In this document: positions 3,101 through 64,000 of the stretch, piece after piece
How the letters are laid out: the number at the start of each line of letters is the position of its first letter
How positions within the stretch are numbered: position 1 is the stretch's first letter
Origin: Calothrix sp. NIES-2100
Lineage (GTDB): Bacteria; Cyanobacteriota; Cyanobacteriia; Cyanobacteriales; Nostocaceae
NCBI GenBank assembly: GCA_002368195.1
Contig: AP018178.1
Location: 5,337,286-5,401,285, forward strand
DNA length: 64,000 nt
Reading direction: 5' to 3'
Translations under genes and position numbers: made by a program
Notes under the pieces: model-generated
What the model was told of the DNA's origin: nothing
The model's database searches: none
The model's input: only the letters and a program-made list of their open reading frames with translations

Positions 3101-4206
3101 TCACCCAATATGTTCAAAGCTGCATTATTGTCTCTCAAATTGTCACTACTACAATTAGGACAAGACCATTCACGCAGCTTTAAATCTTTGAGCAATGGGT
3201 TAATGAAACCACAATGATTACACGTTTGAGATGAGGGATAAAATGTCCCAACTTTCTGCACCATTCTGTCATGCCACAAAGCTTTATATTCCAGCATGGC
3301 AACGAACTTAGACCAACTAGCGTCCGAAATGCTCAAAGCTAGTTTGTGATTTTTAACCATGTTGGCAACTCGCAAATCTTCGATACAGATAATGCTGTTT
3401 TCTTTGATTAAGCGAGTTGAAAGTTTGTGCAGAAAATCGTCTCTGAGATTAGTAATTCTTTCGTAGGTACGAGCCAGCTTGATTTTCGCTTTGACTCGAT
3501 TACTACTACCTTTTACACTACGGGATAGCTTTTTATGTGCTTTACGTAACTTCCTTTTTTGAGTTCTGTAATATTTTGGATTATCTACAACTTCCCCATC
3601 GCTAGTAACGAGATAAGATTTTATGCCTAAGTCTAGCCCAATATTTTGAGTGACCCGGGGGTGTTTCTCTATCTCTGTTTCACATAAAATACTAGCAATA
3701 TATTTACCTGATGTAGTGCGAGTTACAGTAACGTTTATCAGCTTTCCAGTAATTGACTGAGACTTGTAAAACTTCACCCATCCTAGCTTTGGAAGCTTTA
3801 AACGATTCTCTATTACTTGAATGTTGCCGTTAGTAAAATTAGTTTTGTAAGACTGCTTGCACCCATACTTCTTTTTAAATTTAGGAAAACCTACACTCTT
3901 TTTGCCTTCGACTTTTTTTAAGTCAGCGAAAAAGTTTTTGTACGCTGTCTCTAAATTCTTGAGTGAGTTCTGTAGAGCAAACTTATCTACCTCTTTGAGC
4001 CATTCAATCTCTTTTTTAAGTAAAGTTAAGTGCTGACTACAAGCGTTATAGTTTAACGCTTTTTTCTCAGTGCTATATAAATTTTTTCTCAGTGCTAAAA
4101 AGCGGTTGTACACAAACCTTGCACAGCCAATAGTCTTGTTAATTAAGACTTCTTGATTGTGTGTGGGAATTAGTGTAACTTTAAACGCTTTCTGGACGTA
4201 TGACAC
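3037..4206 (-). CDS. tnpB: TnpB (OrfB_IS605) RNA-guided endonuclease-like transposase accessory protein, 389 aa.
   Basis: Full ORF. The C-terminus has the zinc-finger CNHCGF...CPNCSS typical of TnpB/OrfB. The body is a lysine/arginine-rich RuvC-like region ([11 protein letters not shown]..., ...ICIEDL...). Confidence 0.85.
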
Positions 4207-4893
4207 AAATTCTTAAATGTCTGTACTTGCAATACTATCTTAACACAAAAGTATGCTCAATATTGAGATCATAACTCATGACTATAAGTCATGAGTATGC
4301 GGCTTGAAGGCATCAAATCCCCGACTTCCTAAAAGTTGTCGGGGATCTCGTAGCCCATGATAATTAATGCGATCAACTACTAGTCCAAGATATCAAGTTC
4401 AAATAGTTTCGCTGGCAAATGAAATCAATATTGAACAATAATCTTTAACTGTGTCAGCCCAAATACAAAGAACAGCTCTCTTTGGAGTTAATGACAGCGA
4501 ATATTAGGGCTGAGAATTATACCCCAGCTTTTTATGTCTTGGCAATGTCAAACAAATTCCGCCAGATAACACGGCGCTAGTAACACAAGCAATTAGGATA
4601 ACTTGGACAACATCACTCCAATTAGTAAGCATTTTTTCTACCTCATTGTTTGAGAAGGATTTTGAGTTGGCGTTTTCTGTGCGTGTCCATAATTACTCTT
4701 TTTTTTGGAATTGGCAAGTGTTTATATCTGGGTTTTTTGAAAAATATCATTGTGAAAAAAGCACAGTATAAATACCGTATAAATCCGGTTTACAAAAATT
4801 TTTTGCCTTATGTAATACCAATTGTCTAAACGATTCCCAGATGTTAGACAAAAAATTCCTCAATCCAAAATTTAAAATTTGGTTTACCGAATT

Positions 4894-6477: not shown

Positions 6478-7841
6478 ATTTTGTATATGAAAATCAATAT
6501 TTTGAATGATAAGATTTTACTAAATTAAATACTTTCTGAGAATTTTCAGGGTTTCGTTAGCTGTTGGCATTGTATTTTTAGAATACTACCCAGACGAAGA
6601 TAGTACAAGGACAGATAAGACAGTTAAGCGAATCATCTAGAAGACGAGTTAAAACAGTTATCGCTATTTTTTACTCTCGAAAAATCACAATACTAACCCT
6701 ACTAACAACCTCAGACAGCATCTGATTTGTGTCATCGCATTCCTGCTTTATCATTTAACATTCTTAATTGCGAAAGTAAGTCGGTAATTGCACCAAACTA
6801 TATTACGCAATGTAAACATGCTTGAAACCCTTACCAAGGATGCCACTTGCTTCAAGCCTCTTAAGCCGTCCAACACAGGGCTGCACCAATGACAAACCTC
6901 TCTTATCAAAGACGCACTCGCGTTCGCGAGCTGTCTTTAATTGCGCCGACCTACTTACAAAAAAATAAGATTTTAAGATAATTCTCTGCCGCTACCAAAA
7001 GTCGGATTATTTTTTATGATAAGAGTTTCTTAGCTATATCAGTAATTTCAATAATCAAATCAAATTGCCATATAGCAATCTTAAATAATTCATGAACAAC
7101 AAGATCCCAGACTTCTTCTAGACAACTTCTGCGGGGCTTACCCTTCGCGCTTAAGCGTTCTGATTCCTCAGGGAGAGGGTGAGCGCTTTCTTTCTTCGGG
7201 TACGATAGAAATCGGGGATCTTAAACCCAATGATTTTTACAAATCAAATAGAATTGCTAGATGTAGATTTCTGAATTCCATACTCAAATTTTTGCATCTA
7301 TCTATAGGCAGATCAGTTAATTTCGATACTTTAATATTATGATACTAGCTTGATTCTAATTTACGCTTAAGAAGCAGCAACTTGCTTTTTGTTACCCTAA
7401 AGCGTATATTATAGTGTAGCTTAAGTTACTATAATCCTTAATAGTTAACAAATTATCTTTGTCAACTATTAAGGGTTTTATGTCAATCTTTGATAGTCAC
7501 TCAAAGCTAACTTAAATCTAAATTAAGCTATTAAAGCAGGGGTTTCATAAAAAATAAATAGTTTCAAATTTGAATGATAGCTGAAGGTTAATATTTTATG
7601 AAATAAAGATAATATCTGGCTCTGAATTTACGCTGTTTAGCTTATTTGGCAACAACACTCATGGATAAATTTAATTTGCTTAAGTCAAGTCAATTTTTAG
7701 CGAATCCTTGTATTGGTTGCTAATTTTTGCTAATGTTAACTTAAAAAACGTTAAATTTATAACGCTTACCGTTAATTGCAATAAATTGTGTTCCTCTAAT
7801 GCTCGAAAAAATTGGAGAATTAATCCTCTAATTAGTAGATT

Positions 7842-9239
7842 TTGTGTCAACAAGAAACTGTTAGTACACAACCTATGGAATTAAAACAAAATAGAACAAA
7901 GAGAAAAAGAGGAGTTATCTTAACTCCTCAAGGACTAAAACAATTACAAGAGGCGATTACATCCTGCGAGATAGCGGAAAATCAAGGTGAGCGCTTAACT
8001 TTAGAGCAACTATCGCACAGGATCAATATTTCGCCTAAAACTCTGAGCCGATTGTGGTCTTTAAGTAAAGGTGTAGATCAAAAAACTCTCAAATTATGTT
8101 TTAATGCCTTTAATTTAGAATTACAAGATGAAGATTATATCTTTTTGCAAGAGGAAAATGAAACAGAAATATTAGACTTTTTTGAGGAGAATTCACCAAT
8201 ATCAAAAAAAATTCCTTTGTCATATCCTAATGGTCCTGTAGCACTGGATTCTCCCTTATATATTGAACGTCCGCCTATCGAAGAACAGGTTTATCAAGAA
8301 GTTACTCAACCTGGTTGTGTAATTCGGATTCGCTCCCCTAGACAGATGGGGAAAACCTCTTTAGTCCTGCGTTTGTTAGCTTTTGCCAAAACACAAGGGT
8401 ATCGTACTCTGAAGATAAAATGCGACCAACTTGATGAAAACTATTTAAGCGACTTAAATAAGTTGTTACGTTGTCTTTGTCGGCAAATAGCTACAGAATT
8501 GGGAACAGATCCCAATATAGATGACAAATGGGATGATGAGATTGGTTGTAAATTGAGTTGTAGCTTATACATCCAAAACTATCTACTAAAGCAGAGTCAC
8601 AGCCCGATAGTTTTAGTGTTGAGTGAAGTTGACCGCTTTTTTGAGTATCCTCACATTGGGCGGGAGTTTTTTGCTTTATTGCGTTCTTGGTGCGATGAAG
8701 CACGGCAAAATCACCATTGGCAAAAATTGAGGTTAGTAGTAGTTTACTCTACAGAACAGTATATTTCTTTAGATATTAATCGTTCGCCATTTAATATTGG
8801 ACTACCTATTCGTCTGAAGGAATTTACCCAGGAACAAGTAGAAGAATTAGCTAGGCGATACGGCCTTTACTGGACTACGAGAAAAGAATCTAGCCAGTTG
8901 ATGTCTCTCGTAGGAGGTCATCCCGCACTGATTCAACTAGCTTTGTTTTATGTTTACTCTCAACCCATGACTTTAAAAGAGTTGATAGCCGAAGCGATCG
9001 CCAACGGTGGCATTTACCGTTATCATTTATGGCTACATTGGGTAAACCTGCAAGCCAATCCTGCTCTGCTCCAGATTTATACTGAGCTAGTAGCAGCAAA
9101 ACAAGGTATAGTTCTTGATCCTGCGGATGCTTACAAACTGGAAAGTTTAGGATTAATTCACTTTGAAGGCGATCGCATCCTACCGCGTTGCGAACTCTAC
9201 CGCACTTATTTTGCCAAGCAACTATCTAAAATGGTTTAA
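7842..9239 (+). CDS. AAA-like domain (PF14516-type) ATPase with N-terminal HTH-like segment, 465 aa. The true start is possibly at 7875 (MELKQN).
   Basis: The sequence YIERPPIEEQVYQEVTQPGCVIRIRSPRQMGKTSLVLRL... parallels the N-terminus of the downstream WD40 protein (YVIRQADAQLY...FCYVFNSRQMGKSSLLHR). The N-terminal 90 aa resemble an XRE-type HTH. Confidence 0.6.
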   Translation: MCQQETVSTQPMELKQNRTKRKRGVILTPQGLKQLQEAITSCEIAENQGERLTLEQLSHRINISPKTLSRLWSLSKGVDQKTLKLCFNAFNLELQDEDYIFLQEENETEILDFFEENSPISKKIPLSYPNGPVALDSPLYIERPPIEEQVYQEVTQPGCVIRIRSPRQMGKTSLVLRLLAFAKTQGYRTLKIKCDQLDENYLSDLNKLLRCLCRQIATELGTDPNIDDKWDDEIGCKLSCSLYIQNYLLKQSHSPIVLVLSEVDRFFEYPHIGREFFALLRSWCDEARQNHHWQKLRLVVVYSTEQYISLDINRSPFNIGLPIRLKEFTQEQVEELARRYGLYWTTRKESSQLMSLVGGHPALIQLALFYVYSQPMTLKELIAEAIANGGIYRYHLWLHWVNLQANPALLQIYTELVAAKQGIVLDPADAYKLESLGLIHFEGDRILPRCELYRTYFAKQLSKMV

Positions 9240-17640: not shown

Positions 17641-17800
17641 AAGTTGCTCACTGAGCGTAAAGCCTCCGGCATAGCTTCTCCTGTCGGAGAGGCTGCGCCA
17701 ACGCTTAGCGCGTAGCGTCTCGCAGAGAAGTCGAAGTCAGCCAAGTTGCTCACTGAGCGAAGTCGAAGTGAGCGAAGTCGAAGTCAGCCAAGTCTAAATG
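17641..17800. repeat. Copy of a short dispersed intergenic repeat family (MITE/REP-like) plus GAAGTCGAAGT tandem units.
   Basis: The core ggcatagcttctcctgtcggagaggctgcgcc and flanking cgcttagcgcgtagcg recur at 54340..54480 and 60060..60180 (partly inverted). Confidence 0.7.
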
Positions 17801-38535: not shown

Positions 38536-38754
38536 GGAGGGGTTAGGGGGATGAGGGAGATGAGGTAGAAGTGAAAATTATGATTTTTATGTCCTCGTTG
38601 TGTGATTTATCACATTAGTGTCTAGCTTGAAAATAGGGGCGGGATAAATTTTCATGTTTGATTGTGGGATTTTCCCGTGATTAGCTGACTTGCAAAAGCT
38701 AAACTATGTCTATTACATTGTGAATGACCGAACGTTTGGGATATTGATCATCTA

Positions 38755-49600: not shown

Positions 49601-50456
49601 TGTGATAGTTTGTTAATTCAAAACCGTTGTTTGTTAAACTCTGGCGCACCTGCTGACTTAAAAGGGCAGAAAATTCTGCTGCACCTGAGCCTGATGGCCC
49701 GTTCAGTGGTTCGCCTGAGTTAATAACTGCGGGATGAGAATATATTTCTACTAGGTCTGCCTGAATTTGCGGGATCAGTCCTAGTAAGTATTCTTCAGTC
49801 ATATTTCCAGTTTGCAGCAATCCATATACGCGCTCGGCGTATTTTATACCGTGAGCGTTGAGTAAACTTTCACCATAACGGCGCAGTCCGCCAAATACTC
49901 CTGACCAGACTAACTTAGTGAGTAGCTCTCGACGGTCAAGTTTTAGGCTGATTTTCAATTCTTCAGATGGCAGACGGATGACTCGGATTTTAAATTCTTG
50001 AGCTAATTCTCCCAATAACCGTAATATTACGGGATGGGCATGTAAATGTAAATGCCCATCAACATGAGAAAGGGGCAGCCCGGATGCACGGAATTTTTCC
50101 AACTGGGCGCGGATTTCTTGCCGCAATTCCTCACGGGCAGCGGGATGAAATTGATAACGTAAGCCAGCTACCAGAGGACTATCAGAAAAGTTACCGAGTG
50201 AGTCTACCAAATGGGGAATTTGGGAGGGAGGCAAAACAGCCCGACCGCACACCAGTACTAAATGCAGACCAACTGCCAAATTGGGATGAGTACGTGATAA
50301 GGCGATCGCTTCTTCGGCAGCATCTCCAGTTACCATCAAACTGGTACTAGTTAGCACACCCTGTTCATAAGCTTGGATAATTGCTTGATTGACACCAGCA
50401 GAAAAGCCAAAGTCATCACCATTAATAATGGCAAAGCGGGGTTTGTCAATTGTCAT
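49593..50456 (-). CDS. hpnK: YdjC/ChbG-family carbohydrate deacetylase, HpnK-like (hopanoid biosynthesis-associated), 287 aa.
   Basis: The N-terminus FAIINGDDFGFSAGVNQAIIQAYEQGVLTSTSLMV is the YdjC signature. It sits immediately downstream of an HpnJ-like radical SAM gene. Confidence 0.65.
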   Translation of the reverse strand: MTIDKPRFAIINGDDFGFSAGVNQAIIQAYEQGVLTSTSLMVTGDAAEEAIALSRTHPNLAVGLHLVLVCGRAVLPPSQIPHLVDSLGNFSDSPLVAGLRYQFHPAAREELRQEIRAQLEKFRASGLPLSHVDGHLHLHAHPVILRLLGELAQEFKIRVIRLPSEELKISLKLDRRELLTKLVWSGVFGGLRRYGESLLNAHGIKYAERVYGLLQTGNMTEEYLLGLIPQIQADLVEIYSHPAVINSGEPLNGPSGSGAAEFSALLSQQVRQSLTNNGFELTNYHRI

Positions 50457-50653
50457 TTGTCAATTGTCATTTGTCATTGGGCATGGGGCATGGGGCATTG
50501 GGCATGGGGCATTGGGCATTGGAAACAATTTTGGATTTTGGATTTTGGATTTTACATTGGAATCCAAAATCGCAAATCTAAAATCTAAAATTTCTTGTCC
50601 TCCTTGTCCTCCTTGTCTCCCTTGTCCCCTCATCCCCCTCATCCCCCTCTGCC
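50457..50653. repeat. Compound STRR array filling the hpnJ-hpnK spacer. It has TTGTCAA/TTGTCAT units, (GGGCATG/GGGCATT) x7, GGATTTT x3 facing AATCCAAAAT/CTAAAAT, then (CTTGTCCTC, CCTCATCCC) units.
   Basis: Read directly. It contains a long imperfect inverted repeat (ggattttggattttggatttt / aatccaaaatcgcaaatctaaaatctaaaat). Confidence 0.85.
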
Positions 50654-52102
50654 CTAGTTCCCCGCTGCGTGTGCAGCAGTTTGCTGATTGCGGCGTTCTT
50701 TGAGGTAGGAGAAAAACTCCCCGCCTTCTCGCAGGCGGCGTACCATCATCTGTCGGTCTGCGAGCATTTCTTTGACAATGGGGATGATTGCCTTGGGACG
50801 GAAGTAAAATTTCCGGTACATCCGCTCAACTGCATCTTCAATTTCCTCACTGGAAAGGGTGGGATATTGCAGTGTTGAGGTTTGAATACCAGAGTTAGCT
50901 ACTAGAGATTGATTGGTAAACCAGCCGTTTTCCTTAGCTTGTTCGTAAAGTTCTGTACCTGGGTATGGTGCAGCAATGGAAACTTGAATTGTATGGGGAC
51001 TGAGTTCACAGGCAAAGCGAATTGTCTCTTCTACGGTTTCTTGAGTTTCAATTGGTAGACCAATAATGAATGTTCCGTGAACGGTGATGCCGAGTTTATG
51101 GCAGTTTTTCATAAATTCCCGCGCCACTTCTAGCTTGATGCCTTTCTTAATCCGGTTGAGAATGTCTTGGTTACCAGATTCAAAACCAACAAGCAGCAAC
51201 CGCAGGCCGTTGTCGCGCAGGGTTTTGAGGGTGTCGTAGTCTAAATTGGCACGGGCGTTACAACTCCAAGTGAGTTTGAGCCGCTTCATATGTTCGCTAA
51301 TTGCGATCGCGCGATGTTTGTCTATGGTAAAGGTATCGTCATCAAACATATATTCCCGCACTTTGTCGCCGAAAATGGCTTTGGCTTCTTCCATCTCCCG
51401 CCCGACAACTTCTGGGGTTTTATGCCGATATAAGTGACCGCCAATTGTCTGCGGCCAAAGGCAAAAAGTACATTTTGCCGGACAACCGCGCCCAGTGTAA
51501 AAGGAAATGTAGGGATGCAGTAAGTAGCCGATGAAATATTTATTAATATCTAAGTCACGGGCATAGGTAGGGAGGACGCTGGGCATAGCATCCCAATCGT
51601 GAATTAAGGGGCGCTCCTCATTGTGACGCACGTTAGAGAACTGGTCACGATAGCTCAGACCCTGAATATTTTCCCAAGGTATGCCTTGAGCTAGTTCCTT
51701 ACAGGTATAGTCAAATTCGTTACGACAAACAAAGTCGATTACTGGATTACCCCGCAGCGTCTCCTCGGGTAAGACTGCCACATGCGCCCCTACAAAGCCA
51801 ATCTGTACGTCTGGATTTTGCGCTTTAATAGCTTGGGCACACTTCACGTCATTAGCGAGTGAGGGTGTACTGGTGTGCATGATTACCAATTCGTAATCCT
51901 TAGCAATTTTCAGCACATCTTCCACAGTTTGATTATGTGGTGGAGCATCCACCAGCCTGCTACCTGGCACAAGTGCAGCAGGTTGCGCTAGCCATGTGGG
52001 ATACCAAAAGGAAGTAATTTCGCGCTTAGCTTGGTATCTTGAACCAGCACCACCGTCAAAGCCATCAAAGGAAGGAGGACTGAGGAACAAAGTTTTCTTC
52101 AT
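50654..52102 (-). CDS. hpnJ: B12-binding-domain radical SAM protein, HpnJ-like (hopanoid biosynthesis-associated radical SAM), 482 aa.
   Basis: The N-terminus MKKTLFLSPPSFDGFDGGAGSRYQAKREITSFWYPTWLAQ matches HpnJ as recalled from memory. CPAKCTFC is the radical SAM cysteine cluster. Confidence 0.75.
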   Translation of the reverse strand: MKKTLFLSPPSFDGFDGGAGSRYQAKREITSFWYPTWLAQPAALVPGSRLVDAPPHNQTVEDVLKIAKDYELVIMHTSTPSLANDVKCAQAIKAQNPDVQIGFVGAHVAVLPEETLRGNPVIDFVCRNEFDYTCKELAQGIPWENIQGLSYRDQFSNVRHNEERPLIHDWDAMPSVLPTYARDLDINKYFIGYLLHPYISFYTGRGCPAKCTFCLWPQTIGGHLYRHKTPEVVGREMEEAKAIFGDKVREYMFDDDTFTIDKHRAIAISEHMKRLKLTWSCNARANLDYDTLKTLRDNGLRLLLVGFESGNQDILNRIKKGIKLEVAREFMKNCHKLGITVHGTFIIGLPIETQETVEETIRFACELSPHTIQVSIAAPYPGTELYEQAKENGWFTNQSLVANSGIQTSTLQYPTLSSEEIEDAVERMYRKFYFRPKAIIPIVKEMLADRQMMVRRLREGGEFFSYLKERRNQQTAAHAAGN

Positions 52103-52402
52103 TGATATTTCTCCTTAGTCAATAGTCAATTGTCAATTGTCAATGGTTAAGGGTAATTGGGCATGGAGCATGGGGCATCCCTTCGACTTCGCTCAGGGCA
52201 AGTGGGCAAGAGTCAAGAGTCAATGGTCAATGGTCATTAGTTATTCTCACCCATCTTCCTTGTCTCCCTTCCCTTATCTTCCTTCTGCCCGGACACTGAG
52301 TTTCGACTACGCTCAACTACCGCGAAGTCGTACCCTACGGGAAGCAAGCTACGCGGAGCGTCTCCCACAGAAGTGCTGCCTTCTGCCCTCTGCCTTCATA
52401 AA
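52103..52402. repeat. STRR array in the spacer between the squalene-synthase-family gene and hpnJ (GTCAATT/GTCAATG units, GGGCATG units, CAAGAGT units).
   Basis: Read directly. Confidence 0.8.
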
Positions 52403-56758: not shown

Positions 56759-57118
56759 ATGGATATTATTAGGGATGTTTTAGATAATCAATTAGTAGAT
56801 CGCAATCAACGCAAAATGGGTAAGGTTGATGGCGTTGTAATGGAATTGCGAGAAGGAGAACCACCGAGAGTGGCTTATATAGAAGTGGGAGTGACGACGC
56901 TGGCTAATAGGATAAATCCACGTTTAGCACGTTGGGTTGCAGCTATTGCGAGTAAATGGGGTGCGAAGCAAAGTGAACCATTGCGGATTCCTTGGACAAA
57001 GGTGCGGGATGTTGGTATTGATGTGGAAGTCGATGAAGAAGCCGAAGCCACACCCGCTTTAGCCTACGAAAAATGGTTGCGCGATCGCATTATCAAACGT
57101 ATCCCTGGAGATGGATAA
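56759..57118 (+). CDS. PRC-barrel domain protein, 119 aa.
   Basis: VLDNQLVDRNQRKMGKVDGVVMEL is a PRC-barrel-like core. Confidence 0.5.
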   Translation: MDIIRDVLDNQLVDRNQRKMGKVDGVVMELREGEPPRVAYIEVGVTTLANRINPRLARWVAAIASKWGAKQSEPLRIPWTKVRDVGIDVEVDEEAEATPALAYEKWLRDRIIKRIPGDG

Positions 57119-57468
57119 TGACAACTAGAGAAATTCATTTAGAATTATTACTTGGTAAGCAAGTATTAGACTCCAATGGTAACGCGATCGGACGCATTGA
57201 GGAAGTACGCGCCGAAAAGCAAGGTGAAGAATGGTTAGTTCAGGAATATTTAATTGGCTACGCTGCAATTTTAGAAAGATTATCCGCCTGGACAATTGGG
57301 TTAGGAATTTTGCATTTACTGGGTGCGCATAAAATCCACGGTGGTCATACAGTACCTTGGGACAAGCTAGATTTGACTAACCCTGACAAACCGCGTTTGC
57401 TTTGTAGTTTAGAAGAATTAAAGTCATTATCTCCAGAATCGCAAAATGTAGATAAGACATCGAATTGA
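57118..57468 (+). CDS. PRC-barrel domain protein, about 116 aa (start at internal ATG overlapping the upstream stop, taATG).
   Basis: LLGKQVLDSNGNAIGRIEEVRAE. GGAG lies 8 nt upstream of the ATG at 57118. Confidence 0.5.
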   Translation: MTTREIHLELLLGKQVLDSNGNAIGRIEEVRAEKQGEEWLVQEYLIGYAAILERLSAWTIGLGILHLLGAHKIHGGHTVPWDKLDLTNPDKPRLLCSLEELKSLSPESQNVDKTSN

Positions 57469-57470
57469 TT

Positions 57471-57519
57471 AGTCAACAGTCAACAGTCAACCGTCAACCG
57501 TCAACCGTCAACCGTCAGT
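57471..57519. repeat. STRR3-type heptamer array (CAACAGT/CAACCGT x7).
   Basis: agtcaacagtcaacagtcaaccgtcaaccgtcaaccgtcaaccgtcag. Confidence 0.9.
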
Positions 57520-57538
57520 TGTCCCTCTCAGATTAATC

Positions 57539-60016
57539 ATGCCGCAATATTTTGGGAAATTACCAACAACCAACCAACCTTGGAACAATATCGGTGGTGT
57601 ACAAGCTGTAAATTGGAGCGATGCCTACGGTGGTAAACAACGCACTGTTAATTTTGAGTGTGGTAACTCACGGTTACAAATTACCATACTTTCCTCTAAT
57701 TTAGTTCGAGTCAGGTTTGCACCGACTGGGGAATTTACGCCCCGCCGTTCTTGGGCGGTAACAGTGGATGATTCAGAATGGGAAAAAGTACGCTTTGAGG
57801 TGCAAGATACTGAAACGACGGTAGAAATTACAACTGAAAAAATTCGCTTGTGTGTGCAAAAGCAAGATTCTCGCCTAGTTTGCTTTGACAAAGCTAATCG
57901 TCCCTTTGCCGAAGATGTTGATATGGGGATTGGTTGGCGTAGGGGCGCTGTTGCTAGCTGGAAGAAAATTTACGCCGATGAGCATTTTTATGGCTTTGGG
58001 GAACGCACAGGCTTTCTGGATAAACTCAGCCAAGTGAAAACTAACTGGACAGTTGATGCTTTAGATTACGATGCGTTGACTGATGAAATGTACCAAGCCA
58101 TTCCATTTTTTATGGCTTTGCGTCCAGATGTAGGTTATGGCATCTTTTTTAACACGACATTTTGGAGTCAATTTGATATTGGTGCCCAAAAGCCTGGTGT
58201 TTGTCAGATGGAAACTCGCGGCGGAGAGTTAGATTATTACATTATCTATGGACCCGAACCAGCGGATATTTTGCGTACATATACGCAATTAACTGGGAGA
58301 ATGTCGCTACCACCAAAATGGGCGCTAGGTTATCATCAATGTCGCTGGAGTTACGAATCAGAAGATGTGGTGCGGGAACTAGCGCGAGAATTTCGTCAGC
58401 GCCGCATTCCTTGCGATGTCATCCACCTGGATATTGACTATATGCGGGGTTATCGTGTGTTTACCTGGAGTCCGAAACGCTTTCCCGAACCCGCAAAATT
58501 GGTAAGTGATTTGGCTCAAGCTGGTTTTAAGACAGTGACAATTATCGACCCAGGTGTGAAGTATGAGCCAGAAGCCAATTATCACGTTTTCGATCAAGGA
58601 ATAGCCAACGATTATTTTGTGCGTAAAGCCGATGGCGTGTTATTTCACGGCTATGTGTGGCCGGAAAAGGCTGTTTTTCCTGATTTTTTACGTTCTGATG
58701 TGCGTCAATGGTGGGGTGATTTACACAAAAGCCTCACCGATATTGGTGTGGCAGGAATCTGGAATGATATGAATGAACCCGCCATAGATACTCGCCCCTT
58801 TGGGGATGGGGGGGAGAAGATTTGGTTTCCTCTGGATGCGCCGCAGGGGGATGGGGGGGATGAGGGGGACAAACAGACGCGGGGACGCGGGGATGAAACA
58901 GATGGGGGGGATGAGGGGGATGAGGGGGATCAGGCAAAAAGCGAAAATGTCTCCGCGTCCCCGTGTCCTCGCGTCCCCGTGTCCTCTTCCACTCATCTAG
59001 AGGTGCATAATTTGTATGGGTTGATGATGGCTAAAGCTTGTGCTGAAGGGTTGCAGCGCCATCGGCAAAAAGAGCGATCGTTTGTGTTGACACGTTCTGG
59101 TTATGCTGGGGTGCAGCGTTGGTCTTCGGTGTGGATGGGGGATAACCATTCATTGTGGGAGCATTTGGAAATGTCCTTACCCATGCTGTGTAACATGGGG
59201 CTTTCGGGTGTGGCGTTTGTCGGTTGTGATATTGGTGGGTTTGCAGGTAACGCCACTGCGGAGTTATTTGCCCGGTGGATGCAGGTAGGAATGCTTTACC
59301 CACTGATGCGCGGACATTCTGCCATGTCTACGGCGCGTCATGAACCTTGGGTATTTGGCGATCGCACAGAAAATATCTGTCGGGAATATATTAACCTGCG
59401 CTATCAGCTATTACCTTACATCTACAATCTGTTTTGGGAAGCGGCACAAACAGGCGCTCCGATTTTAAGACCACTATTTTACCATTATCCGCGCGATCGC
59501 CAAACCTACACCCTTTACGATCAGGTATTTCTGGGAGCTTCTCTGATGGCTGCACCGATTTACCGTCCTGGCGTTGAGTACCGCGCTGTCTATTTACCCG
59601 CAGGTACTTGGTATGACTGGTGGACTGGAGAAAAATACACAGGCCCTACCCATATTTTGGCCCATGCACCATTAGAAAGAATGCCACTTTATGTCCGTGG
59701 TGGCGCCATCATCCCCATGCAACCTGTGCAGCAATATGTCGATGAACTTCCACAAAACTTACTGCATTTGCGTATTTGGCCTGGTGAGAACCAATACTTA
59801 TTTTTTGAAGATGATGGTATCACCAATAATAGTCATAATCAAAACTACTCTTTACGAGAAATCAGGGTATATACGCAAGAAAATCAAACCGTCGTTGATA
59901 TTGTTAAAAGAGTAGGGGAATGGATACCACCAAAAAGAGAAATAATTGTTGAAGTAGTCGGCATTGGCGAACAACGCTTTACTGATGATGGCGGCGCATA
60001 TATCTTGAGATTTTAA
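57539..60016 (+). CDS. Glycoside hydrolase family 31 alpha-glucosidase, 825 aa, with an in-frame low-complexity insertion.
   Basis: GIWNDMNEP is the GH31 catalytic-nucleophile signature. HLDIDYM and WMGDN are supporting motifs. Confidence 0.85.
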   Translation: MPQYFGKLPTTNQPWNNIGGVQAVNWSDAYGGKQRTVNFECGNSRLQITILSSNLVRVRFAPTGEFTPRRSWAVTVDDSEWEKVRFEVQDTETTVEITTEKIRLCVQKQDSRLVCFDKANRPFAEDVDMGIGWRRGAVASWKKIYADEHFYGFGERTGFLDKLSQVKTNWTVDALDYDALTDEMYQAIPFFMALRPDVGYGIFFNTTFWSQFDIGAQKPGVCQMETRGGELDYYIIYGPEPADILRTYTQLTGRMSLPPKWALGYHQCRWSYESEDVVRELAREFRQRRIPCDVIHLDIDYMRGYRVFTWSPKRFPEPAKLVSDLAQAGFKTVTIIDPGVKYEPEANYHVFDQGIANDYFVRKADGVLFHGYVWPEKAVFPDFLRSDVRQWWGDLHKSLTDIGVAGIWNDMNEPAIDTRPFGDGGEKIWFPLDAPQGDGGDEGDKQTRGRGDETDGGDEGDEGDQAKSENVSASPCPRVPVSSSTHLEVHNLYGLMMAKACAEGLQRHRQKERSFVLTRSGYAGVQRWSSVWMGDNHSLWEHLEMSLPMLCNMGLSGVAFVGCDIGGFAGNATAELFARWMQVGMLYPLMRGHSAMSTARHEPWVFGDRTENICREYINLRYQLLPYIYNLFWEAAQTGAPILRPLFYHYPRDRQTYTLYDQVFLGASLMAAPIYRPGVEYRAVYLPAGTWYDWWTGEKYTGPTHILAHAPLERMPLYVRGGAIIPMQPVQQYVDELPQNLLHLRIWPGENQYLFFEDDGITNNSHNQNYSLREIRVYTQENQTVVDIVKRVGEWIPPKREIIVEVVGIGEQRFTDDGGAYILRF
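58795..58990. repeat. STRR-like GGGGATGA/GGGGACAA heptamer cluster plus inverted repeat (gacgcggggacgcgggg / ccccgtgtcctcgcgtccccgtgtcc) embedded in-frame in the GH31 CDS.
   Basis: Same units as the intergenic array at 50580..50660 (reverse complement). It encodes GDGGDEGDKQTRGRGDETDGGDEGDEGDQ...SASPCPRVPVSSS. Confidence 0.75.
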
Positions 60017-60059
60017 AATCTACACTAGGATATATTTTTGAAAACACCAGAGGGGCGGC

Positions 60060-60210
60060 ACTTCGATTTCTCTGCGAGACGCTACGCGCTAAGCGTAAAG
60101 CCTACGGCATAGCTTCTCCTATCGGAGAGGCTGCGCCCTAAGCGTTGGCGCAGCCTCTCCGCAGGAGAAGCTATGCCCAATGCCCAATGCCCAATGCCCA
60201 ATGCCCAATA
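60060..60210. repeat. Third copy of the dispersed repeat family (inverted orientation, forms a perfect hairpin ggagaggctgcgcc-ctaagcgtt-ggcgcagcctctcc) followed by (CAATGCC) x5 STRR units.
   Basis: Read directly. Confidence 0.75.
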
Positions 60211-60339
60211 AAATATGCATATAGATAGATGAAACTATAAATCAAGTATAAGTATTATAAAATACCAGAATATATCCCTCTAGACTCAAAAAACCTTGAA
60301 ATTTGCTCGGCACGTTTAGATGGGGTTACAAAAACCTGG

Positions 60340-63300
60340 ATGTTAAACAGAAACCGCTGGTATCTGCAAGTTCTCGACCAAGTCCCCAGTAAACCGTTAA
60401 TAGTACAAATCAGTAGTGCGATCGCCATATTCATCGGCGGATTTGTACTTATTGGCTGGGGTTTCGATATTGAATTTCTCAAATGTTTCTGCTCTAGTGG
60501 TTTAGTGACCATGAAGGCAAATACAGCCTTGGGTTTTATACTGTCTGGTGTGTCACTGTGGTTAGTTCAGAATCTCAAGACAGAAAAAGGTACTTCTCTC
60601 CAAAATAACGCCCACCACCTTTGGGTTTCGCGGCTGTGTGCAGTAGCAGTATTGATGCTTGGGTTGTTAACAGTCGTTCAATATATCTTTGGGAAGAATT
60701 TTGGCATTGACGAGTTGTTATTCCCCGATTCGCCAAATGCTATATTCACATCGCGGCCAGGACGAATGGGATTGAACACTGCACTTGACTTTATGCTCGT
60801 CGGTAGATCCCTAGAGCTAGCAGTGCATCAAAAAACCGATCGTAGCTATTGGTATTCCCAAATTCTCGCCCTCATAGCTGCTTTAATTTCCTTGCAGGCG
60901 TTAATTGGCTATACCTATCAAGTACAAAGTTTGTATGGCTTACAACCTTATACAACTTCAATGGCCTTACACACAGCTATAACTTTTATAATGCTGTGTA
61001 TTGGTATTATGTGGACAAATCCAAACCAGGGATTAATGCGAATAATTACAAGCAATACCGACAGCGGTTTGTTGTCCCGCAGATTATTATTTGCGGCGAT
61101 CGCAGTTCCTTTGCTAGTAGGGTGGTTAATTGTTCTTGGTCAAAAAATAGGTCAATATGATACGGCGTTTGCCATATCATTATTTGCCATTATCATCATG
61201 GTGATTTTTGCCATTATCATCTGGCAAAGTGCAGCAGTAGTTGAACGCCTCAGTAAACAACGCGATCGCGTTCAAGATGAACTAAAAGCTTACGAAGAAA
61301 AACTCGGAAGTCTTGTAGATGCTAATTTAATCGGCATTATGTTTGCTGATATATATGGCGGTATCCAGCAAGCAAATAATGAATTTTTATCCCTGATTGG
61401 CTACACGCGGGAAGATTTATTAGCCGGGAGGATCAGCTGGAGCGAGATCACACCCCCAGAATACTTATATTTGGATGAGCAGGGAATCGCCCAAGCCCAA
61501 GCAAATGCGAATGGTGCTTGTACGCCCTATGAAAAAGAATATATCCGCAAAGATGGCAGCCGTATACCGGTGTTAGTTGGTTACGTACTGTTGGGAGAAC
61601 AACGCCAAGATTCAGTAGCATTTATTATCAACTTAAGTGAACGTCAACAGGCAAAACAACAAATAGTCCAGCTCAACAAGGATCTTCAGCGCCGTGTCAC
61701 TGAGTTACAAACTTTGCTTGATGTTATCCCCATTGGCATTGGTATTGCCGAAGATCCTGAATGTGAAAGTATTAGAGTTAATCCCGCTTTTGCCAAACAG
61801 TTAGGGATTTCGCCGGATAACAACGCCTCCTTGACTGCGCCACTTGAGGAGAGACCAAATTTTAAACTCTACCGTGAGGGTAAGGAAATATCAGGACAAG
61901 AACTCCCCATGCAGTATGCTGCTGCTCATGGCGTTGAAGTTGTAGATTTTGAGCTAGAGATATTACAGGAAAATGGTAAATTAGTCAAGTTATTAGAGTA
62001 TGTTGCACCTTTGTTTGACGAAGAAGGTAATACTAGAGGCTGCATCGGTGCATTTTTGGATATTACAGAACGCAAGCAAGCTGAGGAATTGCTACGAAAT
62101 CAGCAAAAATGGCTGGAAGATGTACTCAATCTCATGCCCAGACCACTAATATTTATAGAACCAGGAACAGCACGGGTAACTTTCGCTAATCGCGCCGCCG
62201 ACGAAGTAGCTGGGGGCGAATTTCCCAAAGGGATAGCAGCAGCAGATTACCACAAGTTTTATTATTATACTGATGCTCACGGCGATCGCCTTGCCAACGA
62301 CCAAATGCCAGGAGTGCGGGTTGCTCGTGGAGAACGCCTGGATGGGTTAGAGGTAGACTGGCATACAAATCAAGGTGTGCGTTCTCTATTGATATTTGCT
62401 GATACAATGCCTGCAATGCATGGTTATCCAGCTACCTGTGTATTAGTTTTCCAAGATATTACCAATATCAAGCAAGTAGAAAAAGCCCTTTCTTTAGGCT
62501 ACAAAAGACTTAAACTGCTATTTGATACTGCTAGTGAATTATTATCCAGTCAAAATCCTGTGGCATTAGTTGATAGCTTATTCCGTCAACTTGCCGAGCA
62601 AATTGGGTTAGATATGTATCTAAATTACTTGATAGAAGACAACTCTCAGGTAATGCATCTAGCCTCATCCACGGGTATTTCTGAAGAACTGGCAAAAGAA
62701 ATCGAGTACTTGGCGGTGGGTACAGCAGTATGTGGGACGACAGCCCAAACAAAGTGTCAGGTTACCTTAGATAATGTCCAGCAATCAACTGACCCAAAAA
62801 CAGCATTGATTCGCTCTATCGGCATTACAGCTTACTACAGTTACCCGTTAATTACTCAAGGGCAGCTTTTAGGTACTCTTTCCTTTGGCAGCCGCACTCG
62901 CACTCGCTTCAGTGATAATCAAAAGGGAATGATGCAAGCAGTTTGCGATCAAATAGCGATCGCAATGGAACGGGCGCGGTTAATTACTTCTTTGCAACAA
63001 CAAACTGAGCAGTTGCAAGAAGCAAACCGAATGAAAGATGAATTTTTGGCGATATTGTCCCATGAATTGCGATCGCCCCTCAACGCTATCCTCGGTTGGG
63101 CACAATTGCTACGTTCCCGTAATCTCAACGAAACTCAAGCGAGTAGGGGTTTGGAAACAATCGAACGCAATGCCAGAATCCAAACCCAGCTAATTGAAGA
63201 CTTGCTGGATATTTCGCGGATGATTAGAGGAAAGTTGCGTTTGAATGTGGCGACTTGCAATCTGATTTCCATTATTAACTCAGCCTTAGAGACGGTTCAC

Positions 63301-64000
63301 CTAGCAGCCCAAGTCAAGGAAATCGATGTGCAATTTTCTCTACCGGAGCAGGAATCAGTAGCAAATAATCGCAGTAGTGAATTTTTAGTTTCCGGCGATG
63401 CCGAACGCTTACAGCAGATCATTTGGAATTTATTATCCAACGCCATCAAATTTACTTCTCCAGGTGGTAAAATAGAAATTAGGATGGCAAAACTCGTCGA
63501 AAAATGCAAAGGTAATCTGACTAGCTACGCTCAGATTCAAGTAATTGACACAGGTATTGGTATTAGTTCCGAGTTTCTGCCTTACGTATTTGATAGATTT
63601 CGTCAAGCTGATAGTTCCAGTACCAGAAAACATGGTGGACTAGGATTAGGGTTAGCAATTGTCCGTCATTTAGTAGAACTGCATGGCGGTACAGTGCAAG
63701 TCGATAGTCCAGGTGAGGAGCAAGGCGCGACATTTACAGTCAAGCTACCGCTGTTGTCGCCAACACAAGCAACAATTTCCTCCCTACACAAAGAAGATGA
63801 TTCCGCGTCGGTTTTGTATCCTTCCTTGTTAGGCGTGCGAGTCCTAGTAGTAGACGACGAAGTTGATAGCCGGGAATTTATCACCACCGTACTTCAACAA
63901 TCCCAAGCCGAAGTGCAAGCAGCAGCATCAGTACCAGAAGCATTGCAGATAATTCAAGAGTGGAAACCAGATGTGATTGTCAGTGACATCGGTATGCCGA
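60340..64000 (+). CDS. Hybrid sensor histidine kinase, partial (runs off the right edge). Membrane sensor domain (about 7 TM), PAS x3, GAF, HisKA, HATPase_c, then the start of a receiver domain.
   Basis: Hand translation from ATG 60340. The nearest in-frame upstream stop is at 60238 with no alternative start. H-box EFLAILSHELRSPLNAI. G-boxes IDTGIGIS and GGLGLGLAIV. Receiver start VLVVDDEVDSRE...DIGMP at the edge. Not in the ORF track because it is open-ended. Confidence 0.85.
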   Translation, partial: MLNRNRWYLQVLDQVPSKPLIVQISSAIAIFIGGFVLIGWGFDIEFLKCFCSSGLVTMKANTALGFILSGVSLWLVQNLKTEKGTSLQNNAHHLWVSRLCAVAVLMLGLLTVVQYIFGKNFGIDELLFPDSPNAIFTSRPGRMGLNTALDFMLVGRSLELAVHQKTDRSYWYSQILALIAALISLQALIGYTYQVQSLYGLQPYTTSMALHTAITFIMLCIGIMWTNPNQGLMRIITSNTDSGLLSRRLLFAAIAVPLLVGWLIVLGQKIGQYDTAFAISLFAIIIMVIFAIIIWQSAAVVERLSKQRDRVQDELKAYEEKLGSLVDANLIGIMFADIYGGIQQANNEFLSLIGYTREDLLAGRISWSEITPPEYLYLDEQGIAQAQANANGACTPYEKEYIRKDGSRIPVLVGYVLLGEQRQDSVAFIINLSERQQAKQQIVQLNKDLQRRVTELQTLLDVIPIGIGIAEDPECESIRVNPAFAKQLGISPDNNASLTAPLEERPNFKLYREGKEISGQELPMQYAAAHGVEVVDFELEILQENGKLVKLLEYVAPLFDEEGNTRGCIGAFLDITERKQAEELLRNQQKWLEDVLNLMPRPLIFIEPGTARVTFANRAADEVAGGEFPKGIAAADYHKFYYYTDAHGDRLANDQMPGVRVARGERLDGLEVDWHTNQGVRSLLIFADTMPAMHGYPATCVLVFQDITNIKQVEKALSLGYKRLKLLFDTASELLSSQNPVALVDSLFRQLAEQIGLDMYLNYLIEDNSQVMHLASSTGISEELAKEIEYLAVGTAVCGTTAQTKCQVTLDNVQQSTDPKTALIRSIGITAYYSYPLITQGQLLGTLSFGSRTRTRFSDNQKGMMQAVCDQIAIAMERARLITSLQQQTEQLQEANRMKDEFLAILSHELRSPLNAILGWAQLLRSRNLNETQASRGLETIERNARIQTQLIEDLLDISRMIRGKLRLNVATCNLISIINSALETVHLAAQVKEIDVQFSLPEQESVANNRSSEFLVSGDAERLQQIIWNLLSNAIKFTSPGGKIEIRMAKLVEKCKGNLTSYAQIQVIDTGIGISSEFLPYVFDRFRQADSSSTRKHGGLGLGLAIVRHLVELHGGTVQVDSPGEEQGATFTVKLPLLSPTQATISSLHKEDDSASVLYPSLLGVRVLVVDDEVDSREFITTVLQQSQAEVQAAASVPEALQIIQEWKPDVIVSDIGMP

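Follow-up and report, generated by a model that had tools for sequence, protein, structure and literature searches.

Translated short tandem repeats in a GH31 alpha-glucosidase of Calothrix sp. NIES-2100, a probable tolerated passenger at a Nostocales insertion hot spot

The GH31 alpha-glucosidase gene of Calothrix sp. NIES-2100 carries, in frame and shortly downstream of its WNDMNEP motif, a tract of the short tandemly repeated repetitive (STRR) type. The window analyzed is a 64,000-nucleotide (nt) stretch of contig AP018178.1 (GenBank assembly GCA_002368195.1; positions 5,337,286 to 5,401,285, forward strand), to which all positions refer; the features are collected in Table 1. The product of the gene is 100% identical to the alpha-glucosidase of Calothrix sp. 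NIES-2100, contains PF13802, PF01055 (E = 4e-126), PF21365, and PF17137, and is matched without a break over its TIM-barrel domain (residues 256 to 631; Pfam). The nucleophile motif (family form WxDMNE) is WNDMNEP, whose Asp we take, on established GH31 knowledge, to be the catalytic nucleophile, and the acid/base motif (family form WxGDN) reads WMGDN at residues 532 to 536. The full domain set, both motifs, and a fold match (see below) place the protein in GH31; no obvious N-terminal signal peptide was seen in its sequence. On either side of the tract the sequence is native: every cyanobacterial orthologue conserves the segment before it (predicted local distance difference test [pLDDT] score, 70 to 84), and the motif after it, THxE(V/A)HNLYG, is conserved across the orthologue alignments.

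The loop between WNDMNEP and HNLYG was compared in the 120 closest proteins, 119 of which show the two flanking motifs, and in 77 orthologous loci covering the region (from 80 loci). The spacing was exactly 34 amino acids (aa) in 39/119 proteins and exceeded 36 aa in 67/119 (range, 30 to 77); the loop of the window gene has 75 aa. The ancestral 34-aa loop reads AIDDRPFGDPGNKIWFPLDAPQG-PxDER-TTHxE, and length variation in the 119 proteins is confined to the position right after PQG, with 31 different lengths among the 62 closest proteins. At the DNA level, 55 loci of other cyanobacteria and Chloroflexi have a loop of 33 to 35 aa (34 or 35 in 53 of them); these fixed-loop groups (Oscillatoriales, Leptolyngbyales, Synechococcales, and Chloroflexi) carry ordinary sequence (PQG-PxDER-TTHxE), and a second Nostocales GH31 lineage (63 to 67% identity to the window protein) also keeps the ancestral 34-aa loop. 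The variable-loop class consists of the Nostocales orthologue clade and some Chroococcidiopsidales. An earlier note on this DNA, made from the sequence alone, had proposed an in-frame repeat insertion and named same-length ordinary sequence in orthologues as the finding that would speak against it; instead, orthologues outside Nostocales and Chroococcidiopsidales have 34 to 35 aa where the window gene has 75. Judged from these alignments, the extra 41 aa are an insertion relative to the 34-aa ancestral loop, with the tract standing in place of five ancestral residues (PxDER).

Nostoc pairs whose flanking 1.2 kb are 93 to 97% identical have loops that differ by up to 37 aa, whereas Microcoleus pairs of equal divergence always have 34 aa; the site is thus an order-wide hypervariable repeat hot spot and not a peculiarity of NIES-2100. 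All orthologue loci covering the region are in frame. The 3/80 loci without a hit are one shortened contig and two Chloroflexi contigs, the latter most likely with motif variants outside the search pattern. Members of the second GH31 lineage (our handles for loci and contigs, L029, L033, L036 to L039, L056, L063, and L070; for proteins, P0178, P0194, and P0204) keep their 34-aa loop despite equally repeat-rich genomes. Loops of 30 to 31 aa, below the ancestral length, occur in P0014, P0036, P0046, P0053, P0056, P0058, P0059, and P0061; such loops keep the tract-typical E-N (GAGAAT) junction, which suggests the collapse of former arrays.

The tract is a mosaic of 9-mers (GGGGGATGA), 8-mers (GACGCGGG), and reverse-complement C-rich 8- and 16-mers, laid out as a G-rich block and then a C-rich block. 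Tandem Repeats Finder (TRF) resolved head-to-tail repetition of the STRR kind at periods of 9 (2.8 copies), 8 (2.2), 9 (3.8), and 8/16 (2.1 to 4.5). The C-rich array repeats the GACGCGGG units in reverse complement and includes CGCGTCCCCGTGTCCT (2.1 copies, period 8/16) at 58954 to 58986. The repeats of the earlier note are therefore real, and their description changes: its 190 bp or so of heptamers shrink to 138 nt of 8- and 9-mers, as 58781 to 58849 is native, and its GGGGACAA-type unit occurs in the tract once, at 58865. With up to one mismatch allowed, GACGCGGGGAC has 6 matches where 0.25 would be expected, and every one of them lies in the tract (2 on the plus strand, 4 on the minus strand). 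GC content is 63.8% in the tract versus 45.7% in the rest of the gene, and GGG encodes 8/9 of the tract glycines versus 16/64 elsewhere in the gene. As the note had read it, the frame is open and the loop acidic and Gly/Asp/Glu rich: the peptide has 9 Gly, 8 Asp, 5 Glu, and 5 Ser, a net charge of −8, and a hydropathy of 0.325, under the disorder boundary of 0.476. The native FGDGGEK codons (TTTGGGGATGGGGGGGAGAAG, 58800 to 58820) match the first tract unit (58847 to 58863) at 88% identity; they could have seeded conversion with the tract or been its target.

In the orthologues, the tracts are plain tandem arrays of differing 7-, 8-, and 9-nt units, and even closely related strains are unlike in unit type and copy number. 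Some arrays, of the GCAGGGG type, have the native CAG GGG codons as their exact starting point, and the ancestral Asp-Glu codons (GAT GAG) are still visible in some Nostoc tracts (e.g., PQGGDER in L003), which indicates that local seeding also contributes.

The same units recur outside the gene. Exact GGGGATGAG is found 6 times in the window versus 0.2 expected, with three copies in the tract, two in reverse complement at 50629 to 50646 in the hpnJ/hpnK spacer, and one at 38547, which bears out the earlier note's view that tract and spacer share units. On the minus strand the spacer array reads as GAGGACAAG and GATGAGGGG units, and the GATGAGGGG array of the tract is the reverse complement of the 2.7 copies of CCCCTCATC at 50626 to 50649. 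The other STRR-type arrays (period, 7 to 9) checked in the window all lie outside or at the edge of mapped open reading frames (ORFs). A metagenome scan with the sequence of the tract's inverted-repeat arm returned 120 hits, most of them high-GC soil contigs and probably due to chance; 13 contigs of cyanobacterial GC content (34 to 45%) with GACGCGGG arrays were used. There, the GACGCGGG arrays are mixed with GGGGATT, GGGGACT, and GGGAGATGA (in L102 also with GATGAGGGG), they lie outside long ORFs in 9/13 contigs, and in L102, L125, and L134 a G-array, a short spacer, and a C-rich complement follow one another as in the tract. The label "intergenic-type" is apt because these arrays share the tract's layout and lie mostly outside long ORFs; over the window and the 13 contigs, the tract units are dispersed as STRR units are. 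In-frame GACGCGGG arrays were also found in three unrelated proteins, namely, a beta-helix/SLH protein (between domains), an M16 peptidase (within), and another hybrid kinase. Enrichment of tract 12-mers in the flanks of the respective genome gave a mixed picture, clear in L004, L006, L008, L014, L028, and the window and absent in others, and counts as weak support. The hpnJ/hpnK spacer (50436 to 50665) is itself a mosaic of at least six tandem units (TTTGTCA, CATTGGG/CATGGGG, ATTTTGG, AATCTAA, CTTGTCCTC, and CCCCTCATC), with a palindrome where the ATTTTGG repeats join their complement (GGATTTTACATTGGAATCC).

Table 1. Features of the GH31 locus, intergenic comparators in the window, and array units in orthologous tracts
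Feature	Position or locus	Strand	Basis or remark
GH31 alpha-glucosidase coding sequence, host of tract	57539..60016	+	intact ORF, 825 aa
WNDMNEP, residues 408-414, end of strand beta4	58760..58780	+	invariant in both protein alignments
Native opening segment of insert 2, AIDTRPFGDGGEKIWFPLDAPQG, residues 415-437	58781..58849	+	outside insertion
STRR-type tract, 138 nt, 46 aa (DGGDEGDKQTRGRGDETDGGDEGDEGDQAKSENVSASPCPRVPVSS), residues 438-483	58850..58987	+	orthologue comparison
9-mer array, AGGGGGATG x2.8	58845..58869	+	TRF, period 9
8-mer array, GACGCGGG x2.2, left inverted-repeat arm	58876..58893	+	TRF, period 8
9-mer array, GATGAGGGG x3.8, encodes GDE GDE GD	58901..58934	+	TRF, period 9
C-rich array, GTCCCCGC, period 8; right inverted-repeat arm(s)	58949..58986	+	
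Native sequence again, S-THLEV-HNLYG, residues 484-494, start of helix alpha4	58988..59020	+	
hpnJ/hpnK spacer array, CTTGTCCTC x3.8 + CCCCTCATC x2.7	50594..50649	-	intergenic comparator
Heptamer array, GTCAACC x6.6, intergenic, just 5' of GH31 start codon	57472..57517	.	
Heptamer array, ATGCCCA x5.3, intergenic, 3' of GH31 stop codon	60173..60209	.	
Orthologue array unit GGGGACAA	L001, L018		
Orthologue array unit GGGGAGCA	L004, L009, L028		
Orthologue array unit GGCAGGG	L006, L057		
Orthologue array unit TCCAAAA, read SKIQNPK	many Nostoc		
Orthologue array unit GGGAGATGA	L071		
Orthologue array unit CTTGTCTTC	L014		
Orthologue array unit GCCACTA	Chroococcidiopsis L019		

The closest relative of the window gene is that of Aulosira sp. 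ZfuVER01 (L081; 86% identity), whose tract is collinear (a 74-aa version, 80.7% identity, one 3-nt indel); the tract is therefore older than the NIES-2100/ZfuVER01 split and has been stable since. A Logan contig (run SRR25993457) likewise has a tract that is collinear and in frame. In the next relatives, Calothrix FACHB-1219 and NIES-2098, the same codon is the site of a shorter tract of the AGCAGGG type.

The protein was modeled with AlphaFold from an alignment of 123 sequences including Chloroflexi-type homologues (an alignment of 42 close orthologues gave a pLDDT of 52.8 with the catalytic domain unresolved, and that model was not used). The model (pLDDT, 88.4; predicted template modeling [pTM] score, 0.90) has as its best Foldseek match 6jr6_A, a GH31 dextranase (template modeling [TM] score, 0.86). 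Residues 441 to 481 are the sole long stretch with a pLDDT of <50, lack secondary structure, and lie between strand beta4 (406 to 409) and helix alpha4 (486 to 508); the phmmer match against PDB is split at 417/485. In the model, the tract lies in GH31 insert 2 (beta4-alpha4), a generally conserved, flexible insertion after beta4 (PMC9061262), and disorder together with natural length variation suggests that its loop is exposed at the surface. The insert-2 segments known so far are folded loops of an ordinary kind, 15 to 60 aa long, none of which is reported as built from genomic tandem repeats (PMC9061262). A second, small indel site lies in the N-terminal domain, where the window protein is longer by about 6 residues (NWSDAYGGKQRT versus the consensus N-xxx-RT; residues 26 to 34, about 57614 to 57640) with a pLDDT of 79 to 81.

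We class the tract broadly with the Nostocales STRR and G-rich tandem repeats. STRR sequences of heterocystous cyanobacteria were reportedly described by Mazel and colleagues in 1990, and the classical STRR1 to STRR3 are said to be intergenic heptamers (CCCCAGT, TTGGTCA, and CAACAGT). The tract is like them in its short tandem units dispersed over loci, here in the window and in cyanobacterial contigs, and differs in that its units are of 8 to 9 nt, degenerate, and translated rather than strict heptamers. Heptamer arrays are found in orthologue tracts (TCCAAAA, GGCAGGG, and GCCACTA) and in the GH31-flanking spacers. Mini-elements called small dispersed repeats (SDR; about 21 to 27 nt) were reported by Elhai and colleagues in 2008 (Genome Res 18:1484) to nest in heptamer arrays of Nostocaceae. 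That work is cited in PMC5861425 and PMC3116915. The 24- and 31-nt nested elements of Nostoc GH31 and kinase tracts (see below) may be of a similar kind, and the window tract contains none of the nested mini-elements seen in the Nostoc orthologues. The term STRR is used in PMC5088731. In Nostoc sp. PCC 7120, GGGGA(C/T)T repeats are 68% intergenic and 32% intragenic (Rehm et al. 2015, PMC4692102); the presence of such repeats within genes has already been documented in statistical form. Few inverted pairs are described in Nostoc, and the statistics include neither a conserved-enzyme hot spot nor an orthologue comparison (PMC4692102). Like these repeats, the tract is G-rich, with at least four G-tracts (a motif-level prediction) and two canonical sense-strand G-quadruplex (G4) motifs; it differs in its units (GGGGATGAG and GGGGACGC), which take the place of GGGGAYT repeated at least twice. 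Rickettsia palindromic elements (RPEs) are described as discrete families of about 100 to 150 bp with a conserved encoded peptide, in Rickettsia only (Ogata et al. 2000; PMC10969869), and as lying in frame in unrelated housekeeping genes, translated, and judged compatible with fold and function (PMC10969869). By that description the tract resembles RPEs, being repeated palindromic DNA translated inside a housekeeping gene, and is not a member of an RPE family; it differs as a mosaic of tandem micro-units that is variable in length at one site. In the open-access literature, we found no description of this GH31 hot spot or of any conserved enzyme whose catalytic domain holds a codon-precise, order-wide hot spot, nor of nested mini-elements common to several genic tracts.

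We consider the tract a tolerated, function-neutral STRR-type passenger at a permissive hot spot (probability, about 0.75). Replication slippage would grow, shrink, and turn over the arrays, exchange with or copying from other genomic STRR arrays would add to this turnover, and selection would purge variants that break the frame, create stops, or are hydrophobic or structured. The survivors would form a Gly/Asp/Glu/Ser-rich disordered excursion from insert 2. As the units are interrupted and mostly of 9 nt, a multiple of three, slippage would be damped in the NIES-2100/ZfuVER01 lineage, which would explain why the tract remained collinear despite a nucleotide divergence of about 14%. The G-rich half on the left of the tract and the C-rich half on its right would copy the layout of intergenic STRR hairpins, with the strong predicted mRNA hairpin and the G4 motifs as by-products of that layout. 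The earlier note's repeat invasion tolerated in a loop holds as far as the insertion and the disordered site are concerned; as a one-off recent event it does not, since the hot spot is order-wide and the tract predates the Aulosira split.

Several points weigh against the passenger reading. The neutrality of the tract is something we infer. The tract in the window is compatible with both in situ expansion and copying-in; the orthologue arrays at the native CAG GGG favor local seeding, the GACGCGGG and GATGAGGGG units common to unrelated loci favor import, and unit abundance in NIES-2100 is known from 64 kb of the genome alone. The hairpin arms are also better kept between NIES-2100 and Aulosira (21/22 nt [95%] and 33/38 nt [87%] identical) than the sequence between them (38/51 nt [75%]), and both arm mismatches in NIES-2100 can form G-U pairs in the sense RNA but not in the other strand; together these points might reflect selection for RNA structure.

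That RNA or DNA structure is what maintains the tract, by slowing ribosomes between beta4 and alpha4 and perhaps aiding cotranslational folding of the barrel, or, in a variant, tuning mRNA stability or translation, strikes us as improbable. An inverted repeat and a possible mRNA hairpin had been noted earlier, and both are upheld, the hairpin as a prediction. The arms (58876 to 58893 and 58966 to 58983) are of 18 nt and 89% complementary, next to a longer inverted pair in the tract (29 nt, 76% complementary), and they pair with each other in the minimum-free-energy fold. The sense RNA (58840 to 58995) has a predicted fold of −73.2 kcal/mol (z, −3.6; 0/200 shuffles as good), and the DNA and antisense RNA folds are weaker (z, about −2) because both arm mismatches become G-U pairs on the sense strand alone. 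The Aulosira tract reaches a z of −5.05 with 20 consecutive predicted pairs. A regular-expression scan (G3+N1-7) found sense-strand G4 motifs at 58846 to 58868 and 58904 to 58928, the G-rich half folds at −45.6 kcal/mol with G4 versus −12.7 kcal/mol without, and Nostoc G-rich repeats form G4s in vitro (PMC4692102). However, the other 21 orthologue tracts tested have fold z values of −2.0 to +2.5, many of them lacking a complementary arm (e.g., the TCCAAAA types); the hairpin is therefore lineage specific, and a function for it is not supported. Conservation of the hairpin across orthologues was rejected, as in the orthologue-set folds a z below −4 was seen in NIES-2100 and Aulosira alone, and even between these two the pairing register differs. 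No Rfam family was found in 57000 to 60500 at E ≤ 1, where chance hits resembling miRNA precursors appeared (e.g., 23.5 bits versus a gathering threshold of 96), and promoter and terminator scans gave site counts at or below shuffle expectation, with a lone terminator-like site in the tract in antisense. The better conservation of the arms concerns about 60 nt in two sequences and is explained equally well by gene conversion within the tract. Since intergenic arrays also show this G-array/C-array arrangement, the origin of the tract alone leads one to expect it.

Equally doubtful is that the tract is one discrete palindromic mobile element of the miniature inverted-repeat transposable element (MITE), repetitive extragenic palindrome (REP), or RPE kind, inserted in frame once in the NIES-2100/ZfuVER01 ancestor. 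Such an origin would suit the 18- to 20-bp inverted repeat with its spacer of about 55 to 70 nt and has a precedent in RPEs, which are palindromic insertions in frame (PMC10969869); mini-elements demonstrably insert into Nostoc tracts, and the 78-nt excess over the FACHB-1219 and NIES-2098 tracts aligns as two blocks. Yet the arms are tandem 8-mers that form plain variable arrays elsewhere rather than unique terminal repeats, and no target-site duplication was seen at 58849/58850 or 58987/58988. Neither the window nor the 84 loci searched contain a second copy of the whole unit, the combination of terminal inverted repeats, target-site duplication, and near-identical copies is absent from the same set, the 18-mer arm is confined to two orthologous tracts among the 84 loci, and the exact double 9-mer GGGGATGAGGGGGATGAG is in none of the 84. 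Moreover, repeat tracts occupy this site even in the relatives that lack the hairpin.

We hold it for quite unlikely, too, that STRR and mini-element mosaics act as coding-compatible recombining or mobile cassettes that build disordered loops and linkers at Nostocales hot spots (GH31 insert 2, kinase and interdomain linkers), with the Calothrix/Aulosira hairpin and G-quadruplexes selected as a translational pause or stability element between beta4 and alpha4.

A contingency locus, in which changes in repeat number switch the frame or adaptively vary a loop near the active site, is very unlikely. Nostoc units of 7 and 8 nt would shift the frame with a change of one unit, length variation among close strains is strong, and the loop begins just 23 residues after the catalytic nucleophile; but every orthologue locus covering the region is in frame, the NIES-2100 units are 9-mers or degenerate 8-mers collinear over 14% divergence, the protein has no obvious signal peptide, and the peptide is of low complexity and predicted to be disordered. 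In the sequence data, the tract presents neither a perfect repeat with a unit other than a multiple of three nor out-of-frame alleles. An assembly or sequencing artifact in a low-complexity region, prone to error as G-rich repeats and hairpins are, is hardly credible, given the collinear in-frame tract in an independent Aulosira ZfuVER01 metagenome-assembled genome and in the SRR25993457 contig and the tracts at exactly the same codon position in dozens of genomes.

An intein, an intron, and a target of a diversity-generating retroelement were considered and rejected, as the tract is of low complexity without splicing motifs and varies in length, not by adenine-specific substitutions.

The tract is a clean comparative case of "intergenic" repeat DNA becoming bacterial protein sequence, with a known 34-aa ancestor, a codon-defined insertion point 23 residues past the nucleophile, and dozens of natural variants. 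Because selection on the reading frame makes each event at the site visible, the locus offers a handle on STRR origin, spread, and unit exchange. It could also serve as a natural experiment on GH31 loop tolerance and as a marker for Nostoc strain typing. For annotation, low-complexity segments of Nostocales proteins can be translated genomic repeats and not functional motifs.

Two nested mini-elements were seen in Nostoc tracts. The first, of 24 nt (CGCTCGACTGAGCGAAGTCGAAGT; peptide RSTERSRS), breaks the TCCAAAA array of the GH31 tract in Nostoc L008 (about 7385 to 7410) and is also present in P0035; two intergenic regions of the window hold related copies, at 17751 to 17783 (plus strand) and 52181 to 52198 (minus strand), with 1 to 2 mismatches over 18 nt and 0 expected by chance. 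The second, of 31 nt (GACG(C/T)TCGCGGACTCGCTAACGCTGCGCTAAC; peptide D(A/V)RGLANAALT), occurs in near-identical copies that sit in AATTCAA arrays at one common phase, both in GH31 of Nostoc FACHB-892 (L205, 7324 to 7355) and in the neighboring hybrid kinase gene of two other Nostoc (L028, about 8929 to 8960; L060, about 3767 to 3798); it is also found inside a C-rich heptamer array (L009, about 4534 to 4565). It looks like a small, SDR-like mobile element that targets repeat arrays. Such nesting shows the genic tracts undergoing the processes that also shape intergenic arrays.

The next gene downstream specifies a hybrid kinase of PAS/GAF/HisKA/REC type, and in the window it runs from about 60.3 kb past position 64000. 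In several Nostoc and Tolypothrix genomes, it has in-frame STRR tracts at two sites (L004, 8845 to 8910; L005, 8786 to 8817; L028, 8871 to 8970; L060, 3704 to 3800; L014, 9279 to 9407 and 12493 to 12535; L009, 12615 to 12650; L011, 12613 to 12644; L012, 12470 to 12530). Site 1, after LWLFLKGEQG, holds G-rich 8-mers and AATTCAA heptamers or 8 copies of GGGGGACAA followed by a C-rich array; site 2, in the linker before the receiver domain, holds C-rich 8-mers that encode a Pro/Ser/Leu-rich peptide. No such arrays are present in the part of the window copy that falls before position 64000. Downstream of the GH31 stop codon lies a long GC-rich palindrome (60040 to 60172; …CTTCTCCTATCGGAGAGGCTGCGCC…GGCGCAGCCTCTCCGCAGGAGAAG), with the ATGCCCA array directly behind it; in Rfam the palindrome returned subthreshold miRNA-like hairpin hits alone, and it could represent a terminator or one more dispersed palindromic repeat.

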